64,000 bases of DNA, taken from positions 1 to 64,000 of IMG/VR virus record IMGVR_UViG_3300047476_000521. The stretch is one strand, 5' to 3'. Source of the stretch: a virus. The notes beneath the pieces were generated by a model. It worked only from the letters and a program-made list of their open reading frames with translations, ran no database searches and had not been told where the DNA came from. Positions 1,121 through 27,364 of the stretch are shown here, one piece after another; within the stretch, counting starts at the first letter, position 1; every line of letters starts with the position of its first letter. A program made the translations under genes and the position numbers.

Positions 1121-1720
1121 ATGCATATTTATAATACGCCTTATACATATCTTATTGGTTGGACCGAACACGACAAGTGGTATTACGGTTCTCAATATGG
1201 CAAAAAAGCTAATCCTTCAAATTTATGGAAAACATATTTCACTTCTTCTAAACATGTAAAAAATTTTAGAGAAAAATATGGCGATCCGGATATAATCCAA
1301 ATAAGAAAAATATTTGAAGCATCTGAACAATGCAGAGAGTGGGAATACAAAGTTCTTCGTAGATTAAAAGCTAAACAAAAAGAAAAATTTTTAAATAAAA
1401 CAAATAGTAAAGGTATTTCCAACGAAGAAATGTTACTGCTAGGTAAACATCCTTCTCAAAATATAGATGCAAGGAAAAAAATTAGCTTATCGAATAAAGG
1501 TAGATTAGTTGGAGACAAAAATCCATCAAAAAGAGAAGATGTTCGTGAGAAATTAAGAAGACCTAAATCAGAAGAATGGAAAAGAAAAATTTCTGAATCT
1601 TCAAAAAACAGAAAAAGGCTGACATGTCCTTATTGCAAAAAACAACGTCAGCCTCAAATTTATAACAAACATCATGGAGAAAATTGTAAACTTAAACCTT
1701 CTCTGTGCGAAGAACTCTGA
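1121..1720 (+). CDS. GIY-YIG (Seg-like) free-standing endonuclease with NUMOD3-like repeats and C-terminal Zn finger
   Basis: YTYLIG...WYYGS, E(x)KVL and FLNK motifs; KSEEWKRKISES; CPYC...HHGENCK. Confidence 0.8.
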   Translation: MHIYNTPYTYLIGWTEHDKWYYGSQYGKKANPSNLWKTYFTSSKHVKNFREKYGDPDIIQIRKIFEASEQCREWEYKVLRRLKAKQKEKFLNKTNSKGISNEEMLLLGKHPSQNIDARKKISLSNKGRLVGDKNPSKREDVREKLRRPKSEEWKRKISESSKNRKRLTCPYCKKQRQPQIYNKHHGENCKLKPSLCEEL

Positions 1721-1787
1721 AAGTGGTGTTAGAAATCCACACACCAATCTCCCAGCAGTTCATCTGAATGTTATATCGCTTCGTCAT
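1692..1787 (-). CDS. small hypothetical protein (31 aa, MTKRYNIQMNCWEIG...)
   Basis: ATGA overlap with the upstream ORF stop; not in the ORF track. Confidence 0.5.
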   Translation of the reverse strand: MTKRYNIQMNCWEIGVWISNTTFRVLRTEKV

Positions 1788-1963
1788 TTTGCTTCTCCAA
1801 TTTCAAACACTGGCTTACCAACTAAGTTTCCGCCTTCTCGGAGCAACTGGACAAATGTCATTGCATCTGTGAAGGTGGGAAACTGTTTCGACTTATCAAT
1901 AATGAATCCGCTATTGTTCTTTACAGTGTAAACAACTCTGTATGGGTTTCTACGCTCAGTCAT
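1784..1963 (-). CDS. hypothetical protein
   Basis: AAGGAG SD, ORF. Confidence 0.65.
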   Translation of the reverse strand: MTERRNPYRVVYTVKNNSGFIIDKSKQFPTFTDAMTFVQLLREGGNLVGKPVFEIGEAK

Positions 1964-2024
1964 GTTTCTCTCCTTCATAGTTAGACAGTATAAAACATAC
2001 TGCCAATAAAGTCAACTATTTAGA

Positions 2025-2246
2025 TCACAGCTGGCAACTTTTAAGTAAATTAATAAGATTTGTTATCTGTGCATCTGTAATAAAATCTCTTTCTCCAATT
2101 CTATAAGACTCTAACATCGTAGCATAGTATGCAGCATTGTCGCCACGAATGAATACACCAGGCCAGTCATCATTGAATTGAACTGGACCAGTCTCCACAC
2201 GAACAGAGTCATTCTCTGTAATAATATGTCTAACGTCAGTGGTCAT
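2025..2246 (-). CDS. hypothetical protein
   Basis: ORF in operon; ETGPVQFNDDWPGVFIRGDNA segment. Confidence 0.65.
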   Translation of the reverse strand: MTTDVRHIITENDSVRVETGPVQFNDDWPGVFIRGDNAAYYATMLESYRIGERDFITDAQITNLINLLKSCQL

Positions 2247-2469
2247 GAGAAACAATCTTTCTTACTTCTAGACCTTGAGGTGGAAGTCTATCCACAAAGA
2301 ACATAGCATCTGCTTCAGTATGAAACTGTGCTATCACCTCGCCATGTCTAGCATCATATGACGTGGGATCAAGGAGCTGAAATGGCGTCACTACAACAAC
2401 TGCCCATTGCATAGGACGGCAATATACATCTACTTGCACAGTTTGAGCGATTGTCTTTTCAATGATCAT
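2236..2469 (-). CDS. hypothetical protein
   Basis: ORF coupled to the ligase stop (ATGA overlap). Confidence 0.6.
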   Translation of the reverse strand: MIIEKTIAQTVQVDVYCRPMQWAVVVVTPFQLLDPTSYDARHGEVIAQFHTEADAMFFVDRLPPQGLEVRKIVSHDH

Positions 2470-3587
2470 AGTTCCCTCTTACCTTTCCAGAATGCAACGA
2501 CTACGGGAAAACGTAGCTTTCCATCAACTGTTTTGTTCTGATATCGCACAGTAACATCAGTTCCAATCAGCTGCTCACGTTCAGCAAGAATATCTTTTAG
2601 AAATTCCTGCGTTCCACGAACACCAGAGCTCTGAGTAGTTCCATCCTTCAGTTTAATGTCAATAGACTTGGCATATCCTGCCCAGTTACCTTGACCCTCT
2701 GTGATGTCAACAATCTCAAACTCTTCATCTTCGAACTCTTTGTGCTTGATCAAAAACTTAGAACGCTTGCCTTCATACGGTGAGTCAGGAACACGGAGCA
2801 TTTGACCTTCATAACCAGCTTCGAGATAAAAAGCCAAACGCTCATTGATAGCCTGTTCATTTTCTACCATCAGAGTAGGAACAAGCTTAATTGATTCATA
2901 CCAATAATCAAAGTCTTCATCAAAGGCTTCGTCAAAGAATTTAATACGGCTGATGAAGTCGCCATCATTGATGGCGTCATATACCCAAAACTGAATCATC
3001 TGCTTGGACTCTTCGAGATCCTCGGCAGTCGGCTTTGTCTTACGAGCAAGAGAAATAATCTTTTCGAAGTCATTCTTGAGGTCATGGTTGTAAAGTTCAC
3101 CATCAAGAATGATGTCCGGAAAGATCTCAAAGAAACCCTGAAGCTCTTCAAGAATATGTGGAGCAGACAGAATAGGTTTACCCTGCCGGGACTGCATACC
3201 ATCCTTAGAAACGAGACAGCGAACACCATCTAGTTTGGGCTGCGAGTAATACGGGAACTTATTATGCTTCTTAGCGTCATACTTAGTAGCAAGCATACAC
3301 TCATGAAACTTAGCGCCGAGAGTTGAAGCAGCGTTCCAGTTGAAGTGATACTTACCCTGATGCAGTTTCTTTATATATTCAGCATCAATCTCGGCAATGA
3401 CCTGCTGCTCAACAGTTGTTGCATTAGAGCGTCCTGTATTCTTTTCAGTAGGATACTGCCAACCGGAAACAACGATCTTACCGCCATCAATCCCAGAGTG
3501 AGTGCGATACTTTTCGTGATCGTATTCCATCCACCAAACACGAGTCTTTCCCTTCGTGTCGATCTTATAAAGCTTATCGCGTTCCAT
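2466..3587 (-). CDS. ATP-dependent DNA ligase (T4 gp30-like)
   Basis: motif I QPKLDGVR, LDGELY, EGQMLR, KRSKFLIKHK, C-terminal LRFP. Confidence 0.95.
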   Translation of the reverse strand: MERDKLYKIDTKGKTRVWWMEYDHEKYRTHSGIDGGKIVVSGWQYPTEKNTGRSNATTVEQQVIAEIDAEYIKKLHQGKYHFNWNAASTLGAKFHECMLATKYDAKKHNKFPYYSQPKLDGVRCLVSKDGMQSRQGKPILSAPHILEELQGFFEIFPDIILDGELYNHDLKNDFEKIISLARKTKPTAEDLEESKQMIQFWVYDAINDGDFISRIKFFDEAFDEDFDYWYESIKLVPTLMVENEQAINERLAFYLEAGYEGQMLRVPDSPYEGKRSKFLIKHKEFEDEEFEIVDITEGQGNWAGYAKSIDIKLKDGTTQSSGVRGTQEFLKDILAEREQLIGTDVTVRYQNKTVDGKLRFPVVVAFWKGKREL

Positions 3588-3619
3588 CTCTGTGCCTCTC
3601 TTCAACTGTCATTATTATA

Positions 3620-3817
3620 TCATGAACGCTCTAGGATGTCAAGCAGTTTTTCAAGATAGTCGATCTCAGAAAGAGCTCCTTTCTGAAGTCCCTTGTAGTA
3701 CTGATCGTTAAGAGGGTTTTGCTTGGCATACAGTCTCCTGTTCTCGAGCCGAGAATACAGTTCCTCTTTGATCTGGTCCCATGCCTTTTCACGATCTTTA
3801 GAGTAAAAATCATACAT
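3620..3817 (-). CDS. hypothetical protein
   Basis: AGGAG SD, ORF. Confidence 0.6.
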   Translation of the reverse strand: MYDFYSKDREKAWDQIKEELYSRLENRRLYAKQNPLNDQYYKGLQKGALSEIDYLEKLLDILERS

Positions 3818-3930
3818 CAGTATCTCTCCTGTTTCACACGTTTACGGTCATACTTTTTCTTGTTGCGTATGACTCGCTGTTTATATTTACCGCTCTTAAG
3901 CTCTATCGCTATAGGATTATATGTTTTCAT
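3817..3930 (-). CDS. 37-aa basic peptide, ArfA-like
   Basis: MKTYNPIAIELKSGKYKQRVIRNKKKYDRKRVKQERY; AAGGA SD; own promoter; not in the ORF track. Confidence 0.55.
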   Translation of the reverse strand: MKTYNPIAIELKSGKYKQRVIRNKKKYDRKRVKQERY

Positions 3931-3957
3931 CGATTGTTCCTTTCGACCTTCAACATT

Positions 3958-4058
3958 GATTATACTGGGTTCTTGGAAAAAGTCAAGCGAATATTTTTTA
4001 AAAAAGACACTCTCTACGGTTAAGCCTTCGCTTGCCTTTTTCGCAGGATAGGGTATAC
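3958..4058. promoter_or_regulatory. divergent sigma70-like early promoters
   Basis: - strand TTGACT-N17-TATAAT; + strand TTGCCT...TATACT; AT tract between them. Confidence 0.7.
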
Positions 4059-4086
4059 TTAGAATATGGTTGATGAGGAGAAAACG

Positions 4087-4362
4087 ATGAAGACTGTTAG
4101 CGAAATCAACAAGGCCATTCTCTCGGGTAATTTCTCGCCGGACGATATCCGTTCTATTCAGCAGGCACTCAAGGCCGCTTATTCTACGATGCAGACTCGT
4201 GAGAAGTTTTCGTATCGAGTTGGTGAACAGGTAACTTTCAGTTCTCGTTCGGGAGAACAGATCGTTGGTAAGATTACTAAGATTAATCAGAAGACCATTA
4301 ATATCCGTACTAACACTGGTATGGAATGGAAGGTCTCGCCGTCGCTGCTCAAGAAGGTTTAA
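4087..4362 (+). CDS. hypothetical protein with SH3/KOW-like C-terminus
   Basis: GAGGAG SD; VGEQVTF...GKITKINQKT...WKVSPSLL. Confidence 0.7.
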   Translation: MKTVSEINKAILSGNFSPDDIRSIQQALKAAYSTMQTREKFSYRVGEQVTFSSRSGEQIVGKITKINQKTINIRTNTGMEWKVSPSLLKKV

Positions 4363-4373
4363 GGAGAACTCTA

Positions 4374-4595
4374 ATGCCGTATATCGACACTAGCGTTTAT
4401 GTTGATATTGACGAATTCCATGACGACGAGCTTATTGACGAGCTCGAGGATCGTGGATATATCGTCTCGAAACAGGCAGAAGATCCAGTCGATGTCTCGA
4501 AAATTGAAGAACTGCGTAAAGAATATATCACGTATGGATATACAGAAAAGTTTCGAGACTTTCTAGATCGCTTCTTCCACGAAACATTGGGTTGA
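4374..4595 (+). CDS. hypothetical acidic protein
   Basis: AAGGAG SD, ORF. Confidence 0.7.
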   Translation: MPYIDTSVYVDIDEFHDDELIDELEDRGYIVSKQAEDPVDVSKIEELRKEYITYGYTEKFRDFLDRFFHETLG

Positions 4596-4646
4596 CTTTT
4601 TTCAAAAACAGCGGTATAATGTATATACGATGAGAGGAGAACTGTA

Positions 4647-5453
4647 ATGGCTCGTGCCCGTAAGATTGACAACGTTATCCCGCTGCCTTCCTCTAACGAG
4701 AGCGACGATCAGATCGAGCGCCGTATCGCTGAGCGATTTGAAGTGCTGGATTTTCTGGCTCAGAATTGCATCGAGGGTCATTCTCGAGCTGCTATTATTT
4801 CTGGTTCTCCTGGCGTTGGTAAAAGCTACGGTATTATGCGTATGCTAGAAGAGTACGATCCTAGCGGTAATCAGTATACCATCGTCAAAGGTTACAGTCG
4901 TGCAACAGGAATTGTAAAGCTTCTGTATCAGTTTCGTCATCCAGGTAACATTATTGTTTTCGACGATTGCGACAGCGTTTTCTCTGACGATATTAGTCTC
5001 AATCTGCTCAAAGCGGTAGTGGATACTTGCGATCGCCGCCGTGTTTCTTGGTTGAGCGAAGGTAAGCTTCTCGACGAGGATACTGGCGAGTTGGTCCCCC
5101 GTCACTTTGATTTCGAAGGTTCAGTTATCTTCCTGACAAATCTAGATTTTGACGCCATGATCGCTCGTGGTCATAAACTCGCTCCTCATCTGGAAGCTCT
5201 GCAGAGCCGTGCGCATTACCTTGACTTGACGCTCAAGAGTGCGAAAGATAAGATCATTCGTATTCGTCAGGTTGTGCTTCAGGGACTGCTCTCGCATCTT
5301 GACCTAGATCAGCAGGTCGACGTTCTTACTTTCGTCGAAGCTTACTACGAGAATATGCGAGAGTTGTCTCTTCGTGCTGTTATTAAGTTGGGCGCTCTAC
5401 GTGCTAACAACGATAACTGGTCGAAGATCGCTCGCATTACTATGCTGAAGTGA
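4647..5453 (+). CDS. P-loop (AAA+-like) ATPase
   Basis: Walker A GSPGVGKS, Walker B IIVFDDCD, sensor VIFLTN; own promoter TTGACT...TATAAT at 4592-4620. Confidence 0.85.
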   Translation: MARARKIDNVIPLPSSNESDDQIERRIAERFEVLDFLAQNCIEGHSRAAIISGSPGVGKSYGIMRMLEEYDPSGNQYTIVKGYSRATGIVKLLYQFRHPGNIIVFDDCDSVFSDDISLNLLKAVVDTCDRRRVSWLSEGKLLDEDTGELVPRHFDFEGSVIFLTNLDFDAMIARGHKLAPHLEALQSRAHYLDLTLKSAKDKIIRIRQVVLQGLLSHLDLDQQVDVLTFVEAYYENMRELSLRAVIKLGALRANNDNWSKIARITMLK

Positions 5454-6005
5454 TTTGCATTTGCTTCCATGGCATTTACCATAAACTGGCGCTGTTACCG
5501 TTTTGCCACAATGTTCACACGTCTTTGGTTTGTAGTTAGGATTATCTGCGAAGAAACGTGCTGATCTTTTTGGTCTAGATGCTGCAGCGCCTTTTTTACC
5601 GTTATCGCTCTGTATATCTGAGCGTAGAAATGGGTGAGAGCCATCTTGTAATTGTTTGGCGATATATTGTTTGTGTAATTCTGGATTAGAAAAATTATGA
5701 ACGCCTCGTTCTATCTGATCTTGAACAGCAATTCTAGAAATGTCGCTCAATTCTTTACTGCTGAGAGATTGATGCATTCTTTTTGCTATTCTAGAAGCAG
5801 AGCCAATGTCGCCTTGATCTAGATGTATTTTAAAATGTTCTTCTATAGTAACTAATTGTAGATTGTTTATGTCATTGTTCTTGTGGTCTCCATCTATATG
5901 ATGGATCTCGTAAGAACGTCCGTGTTCATCTTTTGGGATTGGACCGTAATATTGTTCGTATATACGGCGATATGTGCGGCTGTGAGTGCGTTTATAAGTA
6001 GTCAT
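5397..6005 (-). CDS. HNH free-standing endonuclease with C-terminal Zn finger
   Basis: EIHHIDGDHKNNDINNLQLVTIEEH; CEHC...CHGSKCK. Confidence 0.85.
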   Translation of the reverse strand: MTTYKRTHSRTYRRIYEQYYGPIPKDEHGRSYEIHHIDGDHKNNDINNLQLVTIEEHFKIHLDQGDIGSASRIAKRMHQSLSSKELSDISRIAVQDQIERGVHNFSNPELHKQYIAKQLQDGSHPFLRSDIQSDNGKKGAAASRPKRSARFFADNPNYKPKTCEHCGKTVTAPVYGKCHGSKCKSLQHSNASDLRPVIVVST

Positions 6006-6084
6006 AGCTGTGTCTCCAAGGTTTTGCGTTAGACATAGAGCTCGTAGATGTTGGTAGCATCGTGACGGGCATCTTTTATTTAGT
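6006..6084 (-). promoter_or_regulatory. late promoter (CTAAATA) plus conserved structured leader (copy 2)
   Basis: GCCCGT-CAC-GATG...CATC-T-ACGAGC-TCTA-TGTCT...GGAGACA-CAGC-T-ATG. Confidence 0.7.
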
Positions 6085-6117
6085 TGACTTTACGCAGAAA
6101 CCTAATATAATATTTCT

Positions 6118-6585
6118 ATGATGAAAAGAAAAGGTGAAATGATGGGAATGAAGTGTTATTTGGTCGATGTTGATGGTACTGTTGCTAATACAGAGCATCG
6201 TATTCATTATATTACAAACGGTCACAAGGACTGGACTAACTGGCATGCGAATGCTCATAAGGACGAGCCAATTGATCAGATGGTAGAAATTCTTGATATG
6301 GCCTCTGCTGCTGGTATTAAGATTGTTCTCTGCACTGGTCGTGATGAGAAGTGCCGTGAGGATACTACTGGCTGGTTCTATGATAATGATATTCCTTTCG
6401 ATGCCCTCTACATGCGCAAGCAGGGAGATCGCCGAGATGATGATATCGTTAAGTTCGAATTGCTAGAGCAGATCTATGCCGACGGTTATGAGCCTGTTCT
6501 AGTATTCGACGATCGTGACCGTGTCGTTAAGATGTGGCGGGCCGCTGGGCTTCGTTGCTTTCAGGTAGCACCAGGAGATTTCTGA
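6118..6585 (+). CDS. HAD-family phosphatase (polynucleotide kinase 3'-phosphatase domain, PseT C-terminal-like)
   Basis: DVDGT motif I, TGR motif II, FDDR motif; true start may be 6139 or 6148. Confidence 0.85.
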   Translation: MMKRKGEMMGMKCYLVDVDGTVANTEHRIHYITNGHKDWTNWHANAHKDEPIDQMVEILDMASAAGIKIVLCTGRDEKCREDTTGWFYDNDIPFDALYMRKQGDRRDDDIVKFELLEQIYADGYEPVLVFDDRDRVVKMWRAAGLRCFQVAPGDF

Positions 6586-6767
6586 TGAGTGAGATCATGT
6601 GTAAGCCGATCCCTAATTGTTTATCGATCGAGGGAGGATCTTGGGAGTATGTTGTAGTCAATCGGCATACTAATAAGATTGTCGCTGCATTCACTAACGA
6701 TATCGATGCTGAACAATACGTCCAGCAGTGCGCTGGACCGTTCTACATTCGAGAAGTTGAAGATTGA
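6585..6767 (+). CDS. hypothetical protein
   Basis: AGGAG SD, TGATG coupling. Confidence 0.6.
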   Translation: MSEIMCKPIPNCLSIEGGSWEYVVVNRHTNKIVAAFTNDIDAEQYVQQCAGPFYIREVED

Positions 6768-6818
6768 CTTTTGTCGCATCTAGAGGTATAATACCTGAAT
6801 GAATTAAGGGAGTCAACT

Positions 6819-7238
6819 ATGCGCCTTCGTATTCGAGTTTCAAATCCGATGTATGCATACCGTCACACGTATGCTTCATATATTCAGATCCCTGAATACT
6901 ACGAATACGAAGGCGAGATTGTATCTCCCAAGCCTAAGTGGCTTTCCGATAACCAATTTATGATGGATACTGGCGAAGATGAATCCGTACTTCGTATTCT
7001 GGATAAAGACAGAATCATTTGTGGTTGGATACCTGGTAATGATAGGAAACTGTCTGCTCCTACGTCAGTTACTGTCCAATCCGGATCTTCTGGAAAGTCT
7101 TATATTGTATCTCTGGCCGATGGCGGTCTTAGTTTACGCTGCAATTGTACATCTTTTTCGTACAGGAAAACTTGCAGTCATATTAAGGAAGTAGAGGAAG
7201 CCGATGTTTACATTTGTCAAAATGCCATCGATGCATAA
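6819..7238 (+). CDS. SWIM zinc-finger protein
   Basis: YIVSL...CNCTSFSYRKTCSHIK (CxC...CxH). Confidence 0.75.
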   Translation: MRLRIRVSNPMYAYRHTYASYIQIPEYYEYEGEIVSPKPKWLSDNQFMMDTGEDESVLRILDKDRIICGWIPGNDRKLSAPTSVTVQSGSSGKSYIVSLADGGLSLRCNCTSFSYRKTCSHIKEVEEADVYICQNAIDA

Positions 7239-7695
7239 CAAGACTTTGACCTGTTTTACCGCAATGAGGGCAAGTAACATATTTACTGTGCACTTCATCG
7301 TAAACCCTCTGGAGATGATCCAATTTCGCTTTTGATCTGCTTTTACCACCTTTAACAGCGTTACGACGCTGTATTTCTGAATTCTGAAAAGGATTTCTTC
7401 CTTCAGATAGTAGTCTCTGTGCTAACTTTTTACCGAATGGATGATCGCCTCTTTCTATTCTTCTTTTGTTAGATAGACTAGCGAGTTGAGACTTATCGGC
7501 CGATAGAGAATGTTTAGAAAGTAGTAAACAAGCAGCCCAGTCTCCTTGTTCGAAATGCACGTTGTAATGTTCTTTTGGAGATAAAGCAATTAGGTTTGAA
7601 GGATTGTTGTTAGTTCTATCTCCATCGATATGATGGATATGATAACCTTGAGGAATAGGACCGAAATGTTGTTCGTAGATACGTCTATATATCAT
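7183..7695 (-). CDS. HNH free-standing endonuclease with C-terminal Zn finger
   Basis: HIHHIDGDRTNNNPSNLIALSPKEH; CPHCGK...HRWHFDKCK; paralog of 5397..6005. Confidence 0.85.
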   Translation of the reverse strand: MIYRRIYEQHFGPIPQGYHIHHIDGDRTNNNPSNLIALSPKEHYNVHFEQGDWAACLLLSKHSLSADKSQLASLSNKRRIERGDHPFGKKLAQRLLSEGRNPFQNSEIQRRNAVKGGKSRSKAKLDHLQRVYDEVHSKYVTCPHCGKTGQSLVMHRWHFDKCKHRLPLLP

Positions 7696-7764
7696 ATGCT
7701 GGCGCTCCTTATTAGCGTTAGAGTCCGTAGATATTGGAGTATCGTGACGGACAACTTATTTATA
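7696..7764 (-). promoter_or_regulatory. late promoter TATAAATA plus conserved structured leader (copy 3)
   Basis: GTCCGT-CAC-GATA...TATC-T-ACGGAC-TCTA-ACGCT...GGAGCG-C-CAGC-AT-ATG. Confidence 0.7.
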
Positions 7765-7775
7765 TGGGAAGCAGC

Positions 7776-8264
7776 ATGAATAACACACAAATATTTGCAT
7801 TCTTTATTCTACCTGCACTTATTAGTTGTGCTGTAGTCGCCTTTGCTCTGTTGTTCAACAGGCTTAACAAGCCCAAGGAGATCGACAAGCCAAAGAAGAC
7901 TGTTGGGCGAACTCTGTATAATTATGATTTGGACGAGTGGAATTATCTAGGGACAACTGAACTAACTGCAGGCGTTGGCGAAGTTAAGGATTACGGTTAT
8001 GTGTTCTTCTTTACACTAAAGTCCGACACAGATGTTCGTGATTATCATGTTCCCAATAGGTTATTCCGAGGACATGCATGGCTTGATGGCATGGCCGAGC
8101 CATGGAAAGCAGGAGAGCGTGAATATTATACGGTGATCAATAAAGCGCCATCTTCTTACCTCAAGAATTACATGAAGGAAAACTATAACTCCGAATGGTG
8201 TAGTAACACTAATTGGTGGGTTCCGATCGTTAAACAAGACCCAGGAACATATTGGGGAGCGTAA
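7776..8264 (+). CDS. hypothetical protein with N-terminal TM helix
   Basis: ORF; hydrophobic N-terminus. Confidence 0.65.
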   Translation: MNNTQIFAFFILPALISCAVVAFALLFNRLNKPKEIDKPKKTVGRTLYNYDLDEWNYLGTTELTAGVGEVKDYGYVFFFTLKSDTDVRDYHVPNRLFRGHAWLDGMAEPWKAGEREYYTVINKAPSSYLKNYMKENYNSEWCSNTNWWVPIVKQDPGTYWGA

Positions 8265-8899
8265 TGACTGATATTCTAAAAGACCTTGAAGGTTATCCCA
8301 ACGATCCTACAGTTGTAATGTCTCGGCGTTTAGTAGGTGATGTTGTTGCTGAAATCAAGAGGCTTCGTGCTGAACTTGTCACTGCCAACGAAGCAAATAT
8401 AGATTTGCGGAAAGCCGCTGCCGTCTTCCTCGATGTCATGCGAGCCGCCCAAGCCGAACTCGCCGCCGAGCGTCGAGACCACGAAGCGACAAAGATTGAA
8501 CACTCGTTAGCGATGAAACGTGCAGCAGAAGAGGCACGGGAAGCCCACATCAACCTCGCCGCCGCCCGTGAGGAAAGTGAGCGTTTGCGCTGGTCGTGCT
8601 CTGCCAAGGACGATGTGGCCCGAAAGATAGCGGAAATACATCGCACCAACCTCGCAGCCAAAAACGAAAATCTAAGAGATATGATGTTTCGTGCATATCA
8701 GGAAGGATGGAACTCCTCATTGAGCTACGTAGGCGAAGACGACATGATTGACGCTTGGGAGGAGTCCGCCGCCAAAGCTCGCATCGACGCCTTTCTCGAT
8801 TGGCTCCGCTCGAATGGGTTTGAGTTGGTGCCGATGGCGCTGATGCCAGAAGACATTGCCAACATCGACGCTGCGCTGAAAGGAGACGGGGATGAGTGA
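8264..8899 (+). CDS. hypothetical coiled-coil protein with a GC-richer mosaic segment
   Basis: ORF, Ala/Glu/Arg-rich. Confidence 0.65.
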   Translation: MTDILKDLEGYPNDPTVVMSRRLVGDVVAEIKRLRAELVTANEANIDLRKAAAVFLDVMRAAQAELAAERRDHEATKIEHSLAMKRAAEEAREAHINLAAAREESERLRWSCSAKDDVARKIAEIHRTNLAAKNENLRDMMFRAYQEGWNSSLSYVGEDDMIDAWEESAAKARIDAFLDWLRSNGFELVPMALMPEDIANIDAALKGDGDE

Positions 8900-26515: not shown

Positions 26516-26706
26516 TAAAGGAACTGATCATACTGGCGCAGGTGGCTAATACAATTCCTCCTGCTGACATTATGAGAAATGACATTCCGACTTATTCATG
26601 GGAAAGGCCAACACAGCCACCGAGATATCAAGTTCCTGCTACTGGTATTTACTCGGCAGGATCTAGACCTCCTCCGATTTCGTTTGAAGAGGTTGAAGTA
26701 GAATAA
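26512..26706 (+). CDS. hypothetical protein
   Basis: coupled ORF. Confidence 0.5.
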   Translation: MIKELIILAQVANTIPPADIMRNDIPTYSWERPTQPPRYQVPATGIYSAGSRPPPISFEEVEVE

Positions 26707-26713
26707 ATAGAAT

Positions 26714-27025
26714 TGCCAAAGGTCGTTGAGAGACGAAACATAGGTTTCTTGGACGTGGGTGCGATTCCCACCGTCTCCACCATGGATACATTCAACCATA
26801 CACACCTGGTGCTAACTAGGTTGCGCAGCCGAAAAGACGTAGAGAAAGAGTCTGTTAGCGGAATGTATCTTTGATGGGGACGAACAGGTTCGACAGGATT
26901 CAGTAAGGTCGTAAGGAGACTGTAGGCATTTATAGGTGCAAACGATAACTTCGCACCATTTGAGATGGCACTAGCTGCTTAATCTCATTGGGTTGGCAAC
27001 TTCCTAGAAACAGAATAGTTGCTTT
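26714..27025 (+). ncRNA. ssrA: circularly permuted two-piece tmRNA, tag (A)ANDNFAPFEMALAA
   Basis: acceptor piece ending CGTCTCC-ACCA at 26782 precedes GGGGACG at 26876 (G3.U70 alanine identity); tag reading frame 26938-26982; outer ends approximate. Confidence 0.9.
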
Positions 27026-27044
27026 TTTCATTTTGGAGTTTATA

Positions 27045-27242
27045 ATGACCGATCAAAAAGACAAATACACCGGCATGCGTGAGTTTAATTTTGCATTGAG
27101 CACTAATGTCTATATCTGTGCAGCAGCAGGAGCTTTTCTAGGAGCAATTCTAGGTTATTGGGCGACAGGATTAGTAGAGATCTCTGTAGCTTCGTCAATC
27201 ACTTTCTTAGTTCTTTCTGGTATCTTTGGGATGTTTGTGTAA
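27045..27242 (+). CDS. small two-TM membrane protein
   Basis: GGAG SD, hydrophobic. Confidence 0.65.
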   Translation: MTDQKDKYTGMREFNFALSTNVYICAAAGAFLGAILGYWATGLVEISVASSITFLVLSGIFGMFV

Positions 27243-27287: not shown

Positions 27288-27364
27288 GGCTCCGTAGCTC
27301 AGCTGGATAGAGCAACAGACTTCTAATCTGTGGGTCGTGTGTTCGAATCGCACCGGAGTCGCCA
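27288..27364 (+). tRNA. tRNA-Arg (TCT)
   Basis: cloverleaf GGCTCCG/CGGAGTC, anticodon loop CTTCTAA, TTCGAAT, encoded CCA; promoter TTGCTT...TATAAT upstream. Confidence 0.95.

Follow-up and report, generated by a model that had tools for sequence, protein, structure and literature searches.

We present an analysis of three endonuclease gene cassettes located in the first 64 kb of a 136,102-bp virus record (IMG/VR record IMGVR_UViG_3300047476_000521, completeness estimate 82%); the term "window" refers below to this whole stretch of 64,000 nucleotides. The cassettes are homing endonuclease gene (HEG) cassettes in an unusually compact, stop-less arrangement, in which the coding sequence ends on a zinc finger that meets a convergent host gene at its 3' terminus and translation is terminated in that gene's antisense strand. 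They are very probably free-standing HEGs of the T4 seg/mob kind that spread between co-infecting relatives by double-strand-break repair, i.e., by intronless homing, as far as comparison of sequences can tell, and an insertion-element mechanism is not supported. The comparisons revealed presence/absence polymorphism of the cassettes at fixed sites, with 3' junctions 0–6 nt after the Cys-Lys (CK) codons that close the finger; insertion that was clean and left no duplication; flanks that are diverged and move along with the cassette; nuclease cores of different kinds joined, at one site, to homologous binding halves; and exchange of leaders between HNH and GIY cassettes.

The three endonuclease genes and the convergent host genes that they overlap are located in the window as follows.

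1121–1720, + strand: copy 1, GIY-YIG-like endonuclease open reading frame (ORF), 199 aa; finger 1625–1687, CK 1685–1690, stop 1718–1720
1692–1787, - strand: 31-aa host ORF, convergent with copy 1, with a homolog in L083
5397–6005, - strand: copy 2, HNH ORF, 202 aa; finger 5457–5519, CK 5454–5459
4647–5453, + strand: ATPase gene (phrog_1250) with its C-terminus in native position; the antisense of its last 57 nt forms the tail of copy 2
7183–7695, - strand: copy 3, HNH ORF, 170 aa; finger 7210–7272, CK 7207–7212
6819–7238, + strand: SWIM-type gene, native up to 7201; its last 12 codons and stop come from the antisense of the copy 3 finger

An earlier reading of the window made without database searches (referred to below as the sequence-only reading) had described the cassettes as antisense to their flanking genes, overlapping the 3' end of a convergent neighbor and borrowing their stop codons. 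All its coordinates were confirmed against the sequence and the ORF list, as were the strands: each copy is antisense to both flanking genes, and each encodes a protein with a terminal C-x2-C...H-x3-C-K finger and, beyond it, an unrelated tail, the stop being supplied by the antisense of the convergent host gene. Copy 1 ends with ..HHGENCK and the tail LKPSLCEEL; its TGTAAA (1685–1690) is followed by a C at 1691 and by TTA at 1692–1694, which on the other strand is the TAA that stops the 31-aa ORF; the copy 1 stop falls within the antisense of this ORF. Copy 2 ends with ..CHGSKCK and the 18-aa tail SLQHSNASDLRPVIVVST, which is read along with its stop from the antisense of the ATPase gene in an overlap of 57 nt, and its CK codons (TTTGCA) directly adjoin the ATPase TGA at 5451–5453. 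Copy 3 ends with ..WHFDKCK and the tail HRLPLLP; the SWIM ORF continues for 26 nt past its CK codons (TTTACA), so that the two genes overlap by 56 nt.

Comparison with homologs indicates that all three neighbors are real genes with native ends. In 59 of 63 IMG/VR loci, homology to the 268-residue ATPase reaches residue 265 or 268, and 16 of the 18 aligned SWIM homologs end near ..EVMEAA at a length of 120–131 aa, the exceptions being P0013 and L073, which have a cassette-type end; consequently, the empty form is the common state at the SWIM site. The native end of the 31-aa ORF is taken from a single genome, L083, where its homolog has the same length. Domain scans recognized HNH_3 in copy 2 (48.1 bits) and copy 3 (57.6 bits; cut-off 24.8), while copy 1, which carries a YTY..YYG motif, matches SegE_GIY-YIG weakly (15.3 bits, below the cut-off of 25; its homolog P0233 scores 25.0 bits) and phrog_314, a 'homing endonuclease' family, with an E value of 2.6e-10. 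The PHROG matches of the nuclease proteins include homing and HNH endonuclease families.

Searches with megablast and blastn found no DNA-level relatives of the region among 50,697 deposited phage records, and the ATPase is at most 42% identical to deposited phage proteins (tblastn), where its relatives are Pseudomonas PA5oct-like and T4-like phages. In IMG/VR, one relative was recovered with the SWIM gene (L073) and nine loci with the copy 3 protein, six of them through a pattern that forces WHFDKCKH (that is, KH after the Cys) and thus constitutes a biased sample. Evidence from metagenome contigs (X4, X6, X7 and X8) was used for those parts of the window that are covered by the contigs.

At the copy 3 site the filled and the empty allele can be compared to the nucleotide. 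The metagenome contig L075 matches positions 5957–7201 at 98.6% and then continues directly with 8258–8689, and the comparison yields the following features, of which only the last is stranded.

7202–8257: clean insertion relative to L075, 1056 bp, composed of 5 nt, copy 3, its leader and o176, and situated inside the penultimate SWIM codon
7150–7201: diverged left flank linked to the cassette, with 16 mismatches in 52 nt against L075; contains the copy 3 stop TTA at 7183–7185
8258–8473: right-hand co-conversion tract; the right-flank mismatches against L075 lie at 8291–8473
7776–8264, + strand: o176, candidate passenger gene with a probable start at 7764 or 7776 and a hydrophobic N-terminus

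The empty allele reads ..GAA GCA GCG TAATG.., with the SWIM product ending in ..EVMEAA* and overlapping the start of the next gene. The insertion separates GGAAGC from AGCGTAATG, and the target is neither duplicated nor deleted; the 3' junction lies 5 nt after CK. The site is filled in L074 and empty in L075, and both alleles are present in one freshwater sample (X7), which contains a joint 7149->8258 as well as a filled contig covering 7448–7730. The mismatches between the two alleles are strongly clustered next to the cassette. Among the 17 mismatches of the left flank, 16 are found at 7150–7195, within the last 52 of 1245 nt, and one in the other 1193 nt (binomial P about 1e-21); on the right, 14 of 14 are found within 216 nt and none at 8474–8689. 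To judge from the two sequences, this pattern is the co-conversion signature of classical intronless homing, contrary to the sequence-only reading, which had expected no flanking co-conversion. With an L075-type flank, the copy 3 stop TTA would read CAA, and the stop therefore belongs to the host-gene end that travels with the cassette. All differences between the SWIM homolog P0013 and the window, 16 in number, fall in residues 1–108, and residues 109–139 match throughout; by this measure the cassette-linked SWIM end has entered a second, diverged background. The gene o176, whose last two codons and stop are the former SWIM end, turned up in no sequence other than the window and L074 and has no usable match in Pfam, PHROGs or the protein atlas; it looks like a passenger of the homing unit.

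At the copy 2 site the comparison with the relatives L076–78 (72–79% nt identity) gives two further features.

5454–6147, unstranded: physical copy 2 insert, 694 nt where L076–78 have 7 nt (GGATATA)
6084–6111, + strand: TTGACT-N16-TATAAT, outward-facing sigma-70-like promoter for the HAD gene, 11/12 matches

The empty site consists of the ATPase TGA, the 7 nt and the ATG of the HAD gene. The insert begins exactly at the CK codons (0 nt after CK) and extends beyond the late-type promoter of the endonuclease gene, adding a new 5' end for the downstream HAD gene; the sigma-70-like promoter lies within it and is missing from the empty site. A joint 5297->6172 was found at this site in X4 (depth 4.4). 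The site is filled in L099, where the ortholog of copy 2 is 69% identical over residues 1–183, the similarity stopping at the last Cys. The end of the ATPase differs between the two states: it reads TCC[KR]* in L014, L004, L073 and L076–78, which have no cassette at this site, and, where the site is filled, TMLK* in the window, CLCK* in L099 and CTYL* in L017. A further comparison, of L004 with L005 and L006, was dropped as a source of junctions, as the region downstream of the ATPase is replaced there and not simply filled or empty.

A third empty and filled pair comes from the phages L014 and L017, which are 99.7% identical: L014 carries an HNH gene with the same finger that is absent in L017. 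The HNH-specific DNA ends 6 nt after CK, with the TGA stop in the shared promoter spacer, and the insert again extends beyond the promoter and includes a sigma-70-like promoter and a new 5' region. Both phages contain several repeats of an intergenic promoter element of about 66 nt, and the spacer of one repeat is where the HNH gene is inserted. Elsewhere, L014 7516–7608 has 25 mismatches in 93 nt against L017 at the 3' end of another GIY-like gene (L014 7598–8119, - strand); the two phages being otherwise 98.5–99.7% identical, this cluster may be a second co-conversion patch. In two more genomes the junction was judged by the conserved end of the neighbor gene, and it lies at most 1 nt after CK in L073 and at most 10 nt after the last Cys codon in L099. 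The distance from the finger end to the native end of the convergent host gene is 0–6 nt at the three sites resolved by empty alleles; in L073 and L099 the finger is within 1–10 nt of the native end of the neighbor gene.

Junctions at 0, 5 and 6 nt after CK at three loci are beyond chance, and in this respect a defined 3' junction, as claimed in the sequence-only reading, is upheld to within a few nucleotides (copy 1, discussed below, allows 1–22 nt). The same reading had attributed the junction to a unit that runs from the late promoter to CK and inserts like an insertion element, with a mechanistically defined 3' end and without homing co-conversion. The junctions in L073 and L099 and the copy 3 target, left intact to the nucleotide, would suit such an element, and the similarity between the paralogs does begin at the late-type promoter. 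The physical inserts, however, exceed the promoter, by a passenger gene in the 1056 bp of copy 3 and by the sigma-70-like promoter and new 5' region in L014 and in the 694 nt of copy 2. Besides, no target-site duplication was seen, a repeat search at the cassette ends found only short chance matches and no terminal inverted repeats, and domain scans of the cassette proteins found HNH_3 and the weak SegE_GIY-YIG match with no transposase or recombinase domain. The diverged flanks and the passenger gene contradict this reading at copy 3; the GIY cassette of L017 and a fourth HNH gene of this genome have stops of their own; and most members of the finger family read K-x-[KR] after the last Cys. 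We therefore consider an insertion element very improbable.

The nuclease and the DNA-binding part of these genes appear in different combinations. At the SWIM 3' end, L073 has a non-HNH endonuclease with the N-terminal domain YVY..YIGKG, whose C-terminal 113 aa are 47% identical to the C-terminal 118 aa of copy 3 (E 1e-35); its tail SLLPL* and the HRLPLLP* of the window are both antisense of the conserved SWIM codons KEVEE. The position after the ATPase is occupied by an HNH gene in the window and L099 and by a GIY-like gene in L017. The L014 HNH and L017 GIY genes, which are unrelated as ORFs, have a common leader of 139 nt at 92% identity, and an ORF of L070 (2407–3078, + strand) is a chimera with an N-half 56% identical to the L017 GIY-like protein and a C-half, including the finger, 47% identical to the L014 HNH protein. 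Loss is visible as well: in L010 6760–6800, compared with L017 3585–4253, the GIY-like body (654 bp) is deleted in frame while the leader, the recoded ATPase end and the remnant M-S-T-I-stop of the L017 ORF are kept, which marks L010, on the strength of this alignment, as the scar of a lost endonuclease gene and a late, decay stage of the HEG life cycle.

These observations raise a second explanation, in which the sites were invaded once, long ago, and the leader and the finger DNA have since served as recombination handles for swapping nuclease cores; the stretch from late promoter to CK would then represent the limits of homology between cassettes and not those of an inserting element. The common leader, the two nuclease types on homologous binding halves, the L070 chimera and the occurrence of the finger on HNH_3, GIY-YIG and NUMOD3 proteins, in many of them 2–8 times, are all in line with such exchange, and recombination and domain swapping among phage HEGs with repeated zinc fingers have been published (PMC10055350, in the sections drawn on here). 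On the other hand, exchange leaves the flush position of the first occupant unexplained, no recombinant pair with crossovers in both handles was seen, and the window copies, at only 21–24% overall identity to copy 1, are too diverged for recent exchange. We regard it as a real possibility that is nevertheless somewhat less likely than an even chance.

The finger itself is a putative zinc-binding C2HC module of the C-terminus, present in all three copies as C-x2-C-x12-14-H-x3-C. Profile scans of the cassette proteins matched no Pfam family to it, whereas 1830 representative clusters match at E<=0.001. The pattern C-x2-C-x8-14-[aromatic or basic]-x0-2-H-x2-4-C near the C-terminus fits 158 of the 159 sequences that were checked (150 among the matches listed, plus hits of the earlier search). 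In the 158 representatives the last Cys is followed by K in 124 and by [KR]-x-[KR] in 109, from which it follows that the module normally runs two residues past CK; in the family as a whole, similarity accordingly does not end at CK. The tail after the last Cys has a median of 7 residues and is no longer than 10 aa in 131 of 158, so tail length is ordinary in copies 1 and 3, whereas copy 2 is at the long end (at least 19 residues in 9 of 158). Also against the sequence-only reading, in other phage groups the ORF stops 3–8 codons after the Cys at all six loci, in five of the six outside the neighboring ORFs, for a sample biased by having been fetched with a pattern requiring WHFDKCKH.

A short family-typical tail, K-x-[KR]-(P) followed by a stop, suggests a third explanation, in which each cassette originally brought a short tail, a stop and a 3' spacer of its own, and deletions subsequently removed what was dispensable, as far as the last zinc ligand on one side and the end of the host gene on the other. 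The family tail is missing in window copy 2 (KSL..), L073 (KSL..) and L099 (G..), the gene junctions in these phages are extremely tight (the TAATG overlap and the 7-nt spacer), and the in-frame deletion in L010 illustrates removal of a cassette body. However, the copy 3 target is intact to the nucleotide, which speaks against later trimming at that site, since a deletion could have left this state only by stopping precisely at the original junction. Nor was an intermediate with a longer 3' spacer seen among the relatives examined. We regard trimming as possible but less likely than not.

The copy 1 junction was approached through the 31-aa ORF. L083 has no endonuclease gene, tRNA or o161 gene at the matching position, and the ORF differs from its L083 homolog in the last six codons and the stop (6 of 21 identical over the final 21 nt); the proteins closest to copy 1 conserve the tail K[FL]KP[SL][LV]CE[EQ][LF] more than the finger. 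The unrelated last 21 nt and the conserved tail together place the junction between 1 and 22 nt after CK. A joint 1022->1744 in X8 (28 other letters between, depth 2.7) was considered as the ancestral empty site and rejected; it would give the 31-aa ORF an unrelated C-terminal half and is read as a deletion variant that removed half of that ORF. Two side observations concern the surroundings of copy 1. Directly beside it lies a tRNA with anticodon CUA (916–989, - strand) of amber-suppressor type, to which ARAGORN assigns the label Pyl from the anticodon alone; TAG ends 11 of the 120 ORFs of at least 120 aa in the 136-kb record, so TAG is used as a stop. On its other side, a 64-aa ORF (1784–1978) found no relative in IMG/VR.

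At their 5' ends the four HNH and GIY genes of the genome share about 60 nt of upstream leader. The leaders of the three window copies are listed below.

1046–1120, + strand: leader of copy 1, with TATAAATA at 1053–1060, hairpin at 1066–1094 and a Shine-Dalgarno sequence
6006–6082, - strand: leader of copy 2, with the late-type CTAAATA and hairpin at 6040–6070
7696–7764, - strand: leader of copy 3, with TATAAATA at 7757–7764 and hairpin at 7723–7752

The exact TATAAATA precedes copies 1 and 3, and CTAAATA precedes copy 2 and the fourth HNH gene. Nine leaders, four from this genome and five from relatives, can be aligned from the [TC]TAAATA element to the ATG, the element being conserved in 9 of 9; its designation as a late promoter is based on resemblance to the T4 consensus. 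Just downstream lies a two-helix hairpin of 10 pairs with 97.8% of cells paired and compensatory changes at 5 of the 10 pairs; none of 500 shuffles reaches the observed score, and slid controls have 26–40% of cells paired. The hairpin is shared by HNH and GIY cassettes (window copies 1–3, L128, L073, L014, L004 and L099) and leaves the Shine-Dalgarno sequence uncovered. No Rfam family matches it at gathering thresholds. It may act at the 5' end of the late transcript.

The fourth HNH gene (genome 131464–131994, - strand; L128) lies outside the window, is co-oriented with its neighbors and has no finger; it combines the same leader with a different C-terminal domain and its own stop. It overlaps the start of a 627-aa gene that by eye resembles ribonucleotide reductase. 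Also concerning leaders, contig depth in X6 rises to 175 at the copy 3 leader (7691–7731), and several contigs match the leader only and continue with dissimilar sequence; in that sample the leader apparently recurs in many contexts. Near-consensus promoters of another type, TTGAC[TA]-N16/17-TATAAT, precede early-type gene groups at 4592–4620, 6084–6111 and 6764–6792 (+ strand) and at 3642–3614 and 3986–3959 (- strand).

The homing reading can be summarized in the following scheme. Three elements make up a cassette: a late-type promoter with its conserved hairpin leader, a core with an HNH or GIY-YIG-like nuclease, and a C-terminal half for DNA binding, closed by the C2HC finger. The cassette sits antisense in a region of early genes, and its finger end lies flush with the 3' terminus of the convergent host gene. 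Owing to this flush position, translation continues into the host antisense until it reaches a stop that arose by chance or co-evolved with the flank. The cassette would be expressed late, and the enzyme would cut the cassette-less allele near the host gene 3' end, as the recoded SWIM positions 7150–7201 and the recoded ATPase ends indirectly suggest. What would maintain the stop-less end is that the protein needs no residues beyond the last zinc ligand and that intergenic spacer is hardly tolerated in these genomes.

Several points weigh against this scheme or narrow its base. Simple homing does not explain how the copy 3 insertion came to be flush already at its origin. Among the three window cassettes only copy 3 has an empty allele of more than 95% identity; the empty site of copy 2 is taken from relatives of 72–79% nt identity and the one joint at depth 4.4, and copy 1 has the distant L083 and the low-depth X8 joint, neither of them an informative empty site. 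Co-conversion is visible at one site only, with no diverged patch beside the HNH junction in the L014/L017 pair. Finally, the window contains TATAAATA 8 times where 7.2 occurrences are expected, which is no enrichment, and its frequency was dropped as support for the promoter label.

The origin of the flush position could be explained if, in this freshwater lineage, the cassettes had been established as stop-less modules without untranslated regions that end physically at the last zinc-finger codon, so that the copy 3 insertion was flush from the start. We consider this unlikely, though if true it would couple the insertion step to the finger end and represent a distinct way of founding homing sites. 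A possible route would be illegitimate break repair anchored at the finger-bound enzyme; an alternative would be plug-in exchange of nuclease cores between the leader-hairpin handle and the finger handle.

The remaining observations in the window concern RNA genes. A permuted alpha-type transfer-messenger RNA is encoded at 26680–27073 on the + strand (RF04321, 88.3 bits; RF01849, 71.3 bits; tag ANDNFAPFEMALAA), followed by a tRNA-Arg(UCU) at 27288–27364. The permuted alpha-type form hints at an alphaproteobacterial host.

To our knowledge, the first entry of free-standing HEGs into a new site is poorly understood, and only their later spread by homing is well studied. The locus described here offers a nucleotide-resolved pair of empty and filled alleles with flush insertion, passenger gene and clear co-conversion tracts, while relatives hold a different nuclease on a homologous binding half at the same site. 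It illustrates how a selfish gene can be packed into a nearly spacerless genome by giving up its own stop and recoding the end of its neighbor, and with one of the cassettes (copy 2) the host gene downstream also receives a new promoter in place of its own. For annotation, and for studies of HEG regulation and target finding, the leader hairpin and the finger module, which is widespread but unnamed, can serve as handles.

The closest known systems belong to phage T4: its free-standing seg genes (GIY-YIG) and mob genes (HNH) lie between conserved genes and spread by intronless homing; in the sections drawn on here, the T4 review also treats late promoters, co-conversion and, as a way for such genes to reach new sites, illegitimate repair of breaks at microhomology (PMC2988022). 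The window cassettes agree with seg and mob in nuclease families, location, putatively in late or middle promoters, in structured leaders, presence/absence patterns, co-conversion of flanks and overlaps with neighbors, the T4 overlaps being, in the same sections, 5' overlaps with the co-oriented upstream gene (segC, segF, mobA, mobC and mobE) (PMC2988022). In contrast, the window genes are antisense, overlap a convergent gene at the 3' end and lack their own stop, and the SWIM host gene reads into the cassette. In T4-related phages, SegH and Hef reportedly replace mobC and mobE at matching positions, which likewise puts different endonuclease families at one intergenic position. At the SWIM site, unlike in the case of SegH and Hef, the two enzymes have homologous DNA-binding halves and the difference is confined to the nuclease core, which favors a core swap over independent invasion. 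The T5orf172 HEGs of ICP1 and other vibriophages are similar in their repeated zinc-finger DNA-binding domains ('beads on a string'), in domain shuffling with exchange of nuclease and binding parts by recombination, and in adjoining essential genes, according to the sections of that study used here; their fingers are CapR, DUF723 and DUF4397, with a CxxC...CxC motif, different from the C-x2-C-x12-14-H-x3-C of the window (PMC10055350). Two features, the convergent 3' overlap with a stop-less endonuclease ORF and the leader hairpin common to HNH and GIY cassettes, are not described in the sections of PMC2988022 and PMC10055350 consulted; the literature search was limited, and we do not claim their absence from print. 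The points added by the present work are the structured leader common to HNH and GIY cassettes and the presence of different nucleases at one site. A reshaped host gene is also known from Aeromonas phage Aeh1, where, in the portions of the reports used here, mobE is inserted in nrdA and splits it in two with function retained (PMC3045599, PMC2988022). In both cases insertion of a free-standing HEG remodels the coding end of the host gene (PMC3045599), but here, unlike in Aeh1, only the last residues of the neighbor are replaced or extended, SWIM by 10 aa and the ATPase by a recoded end.

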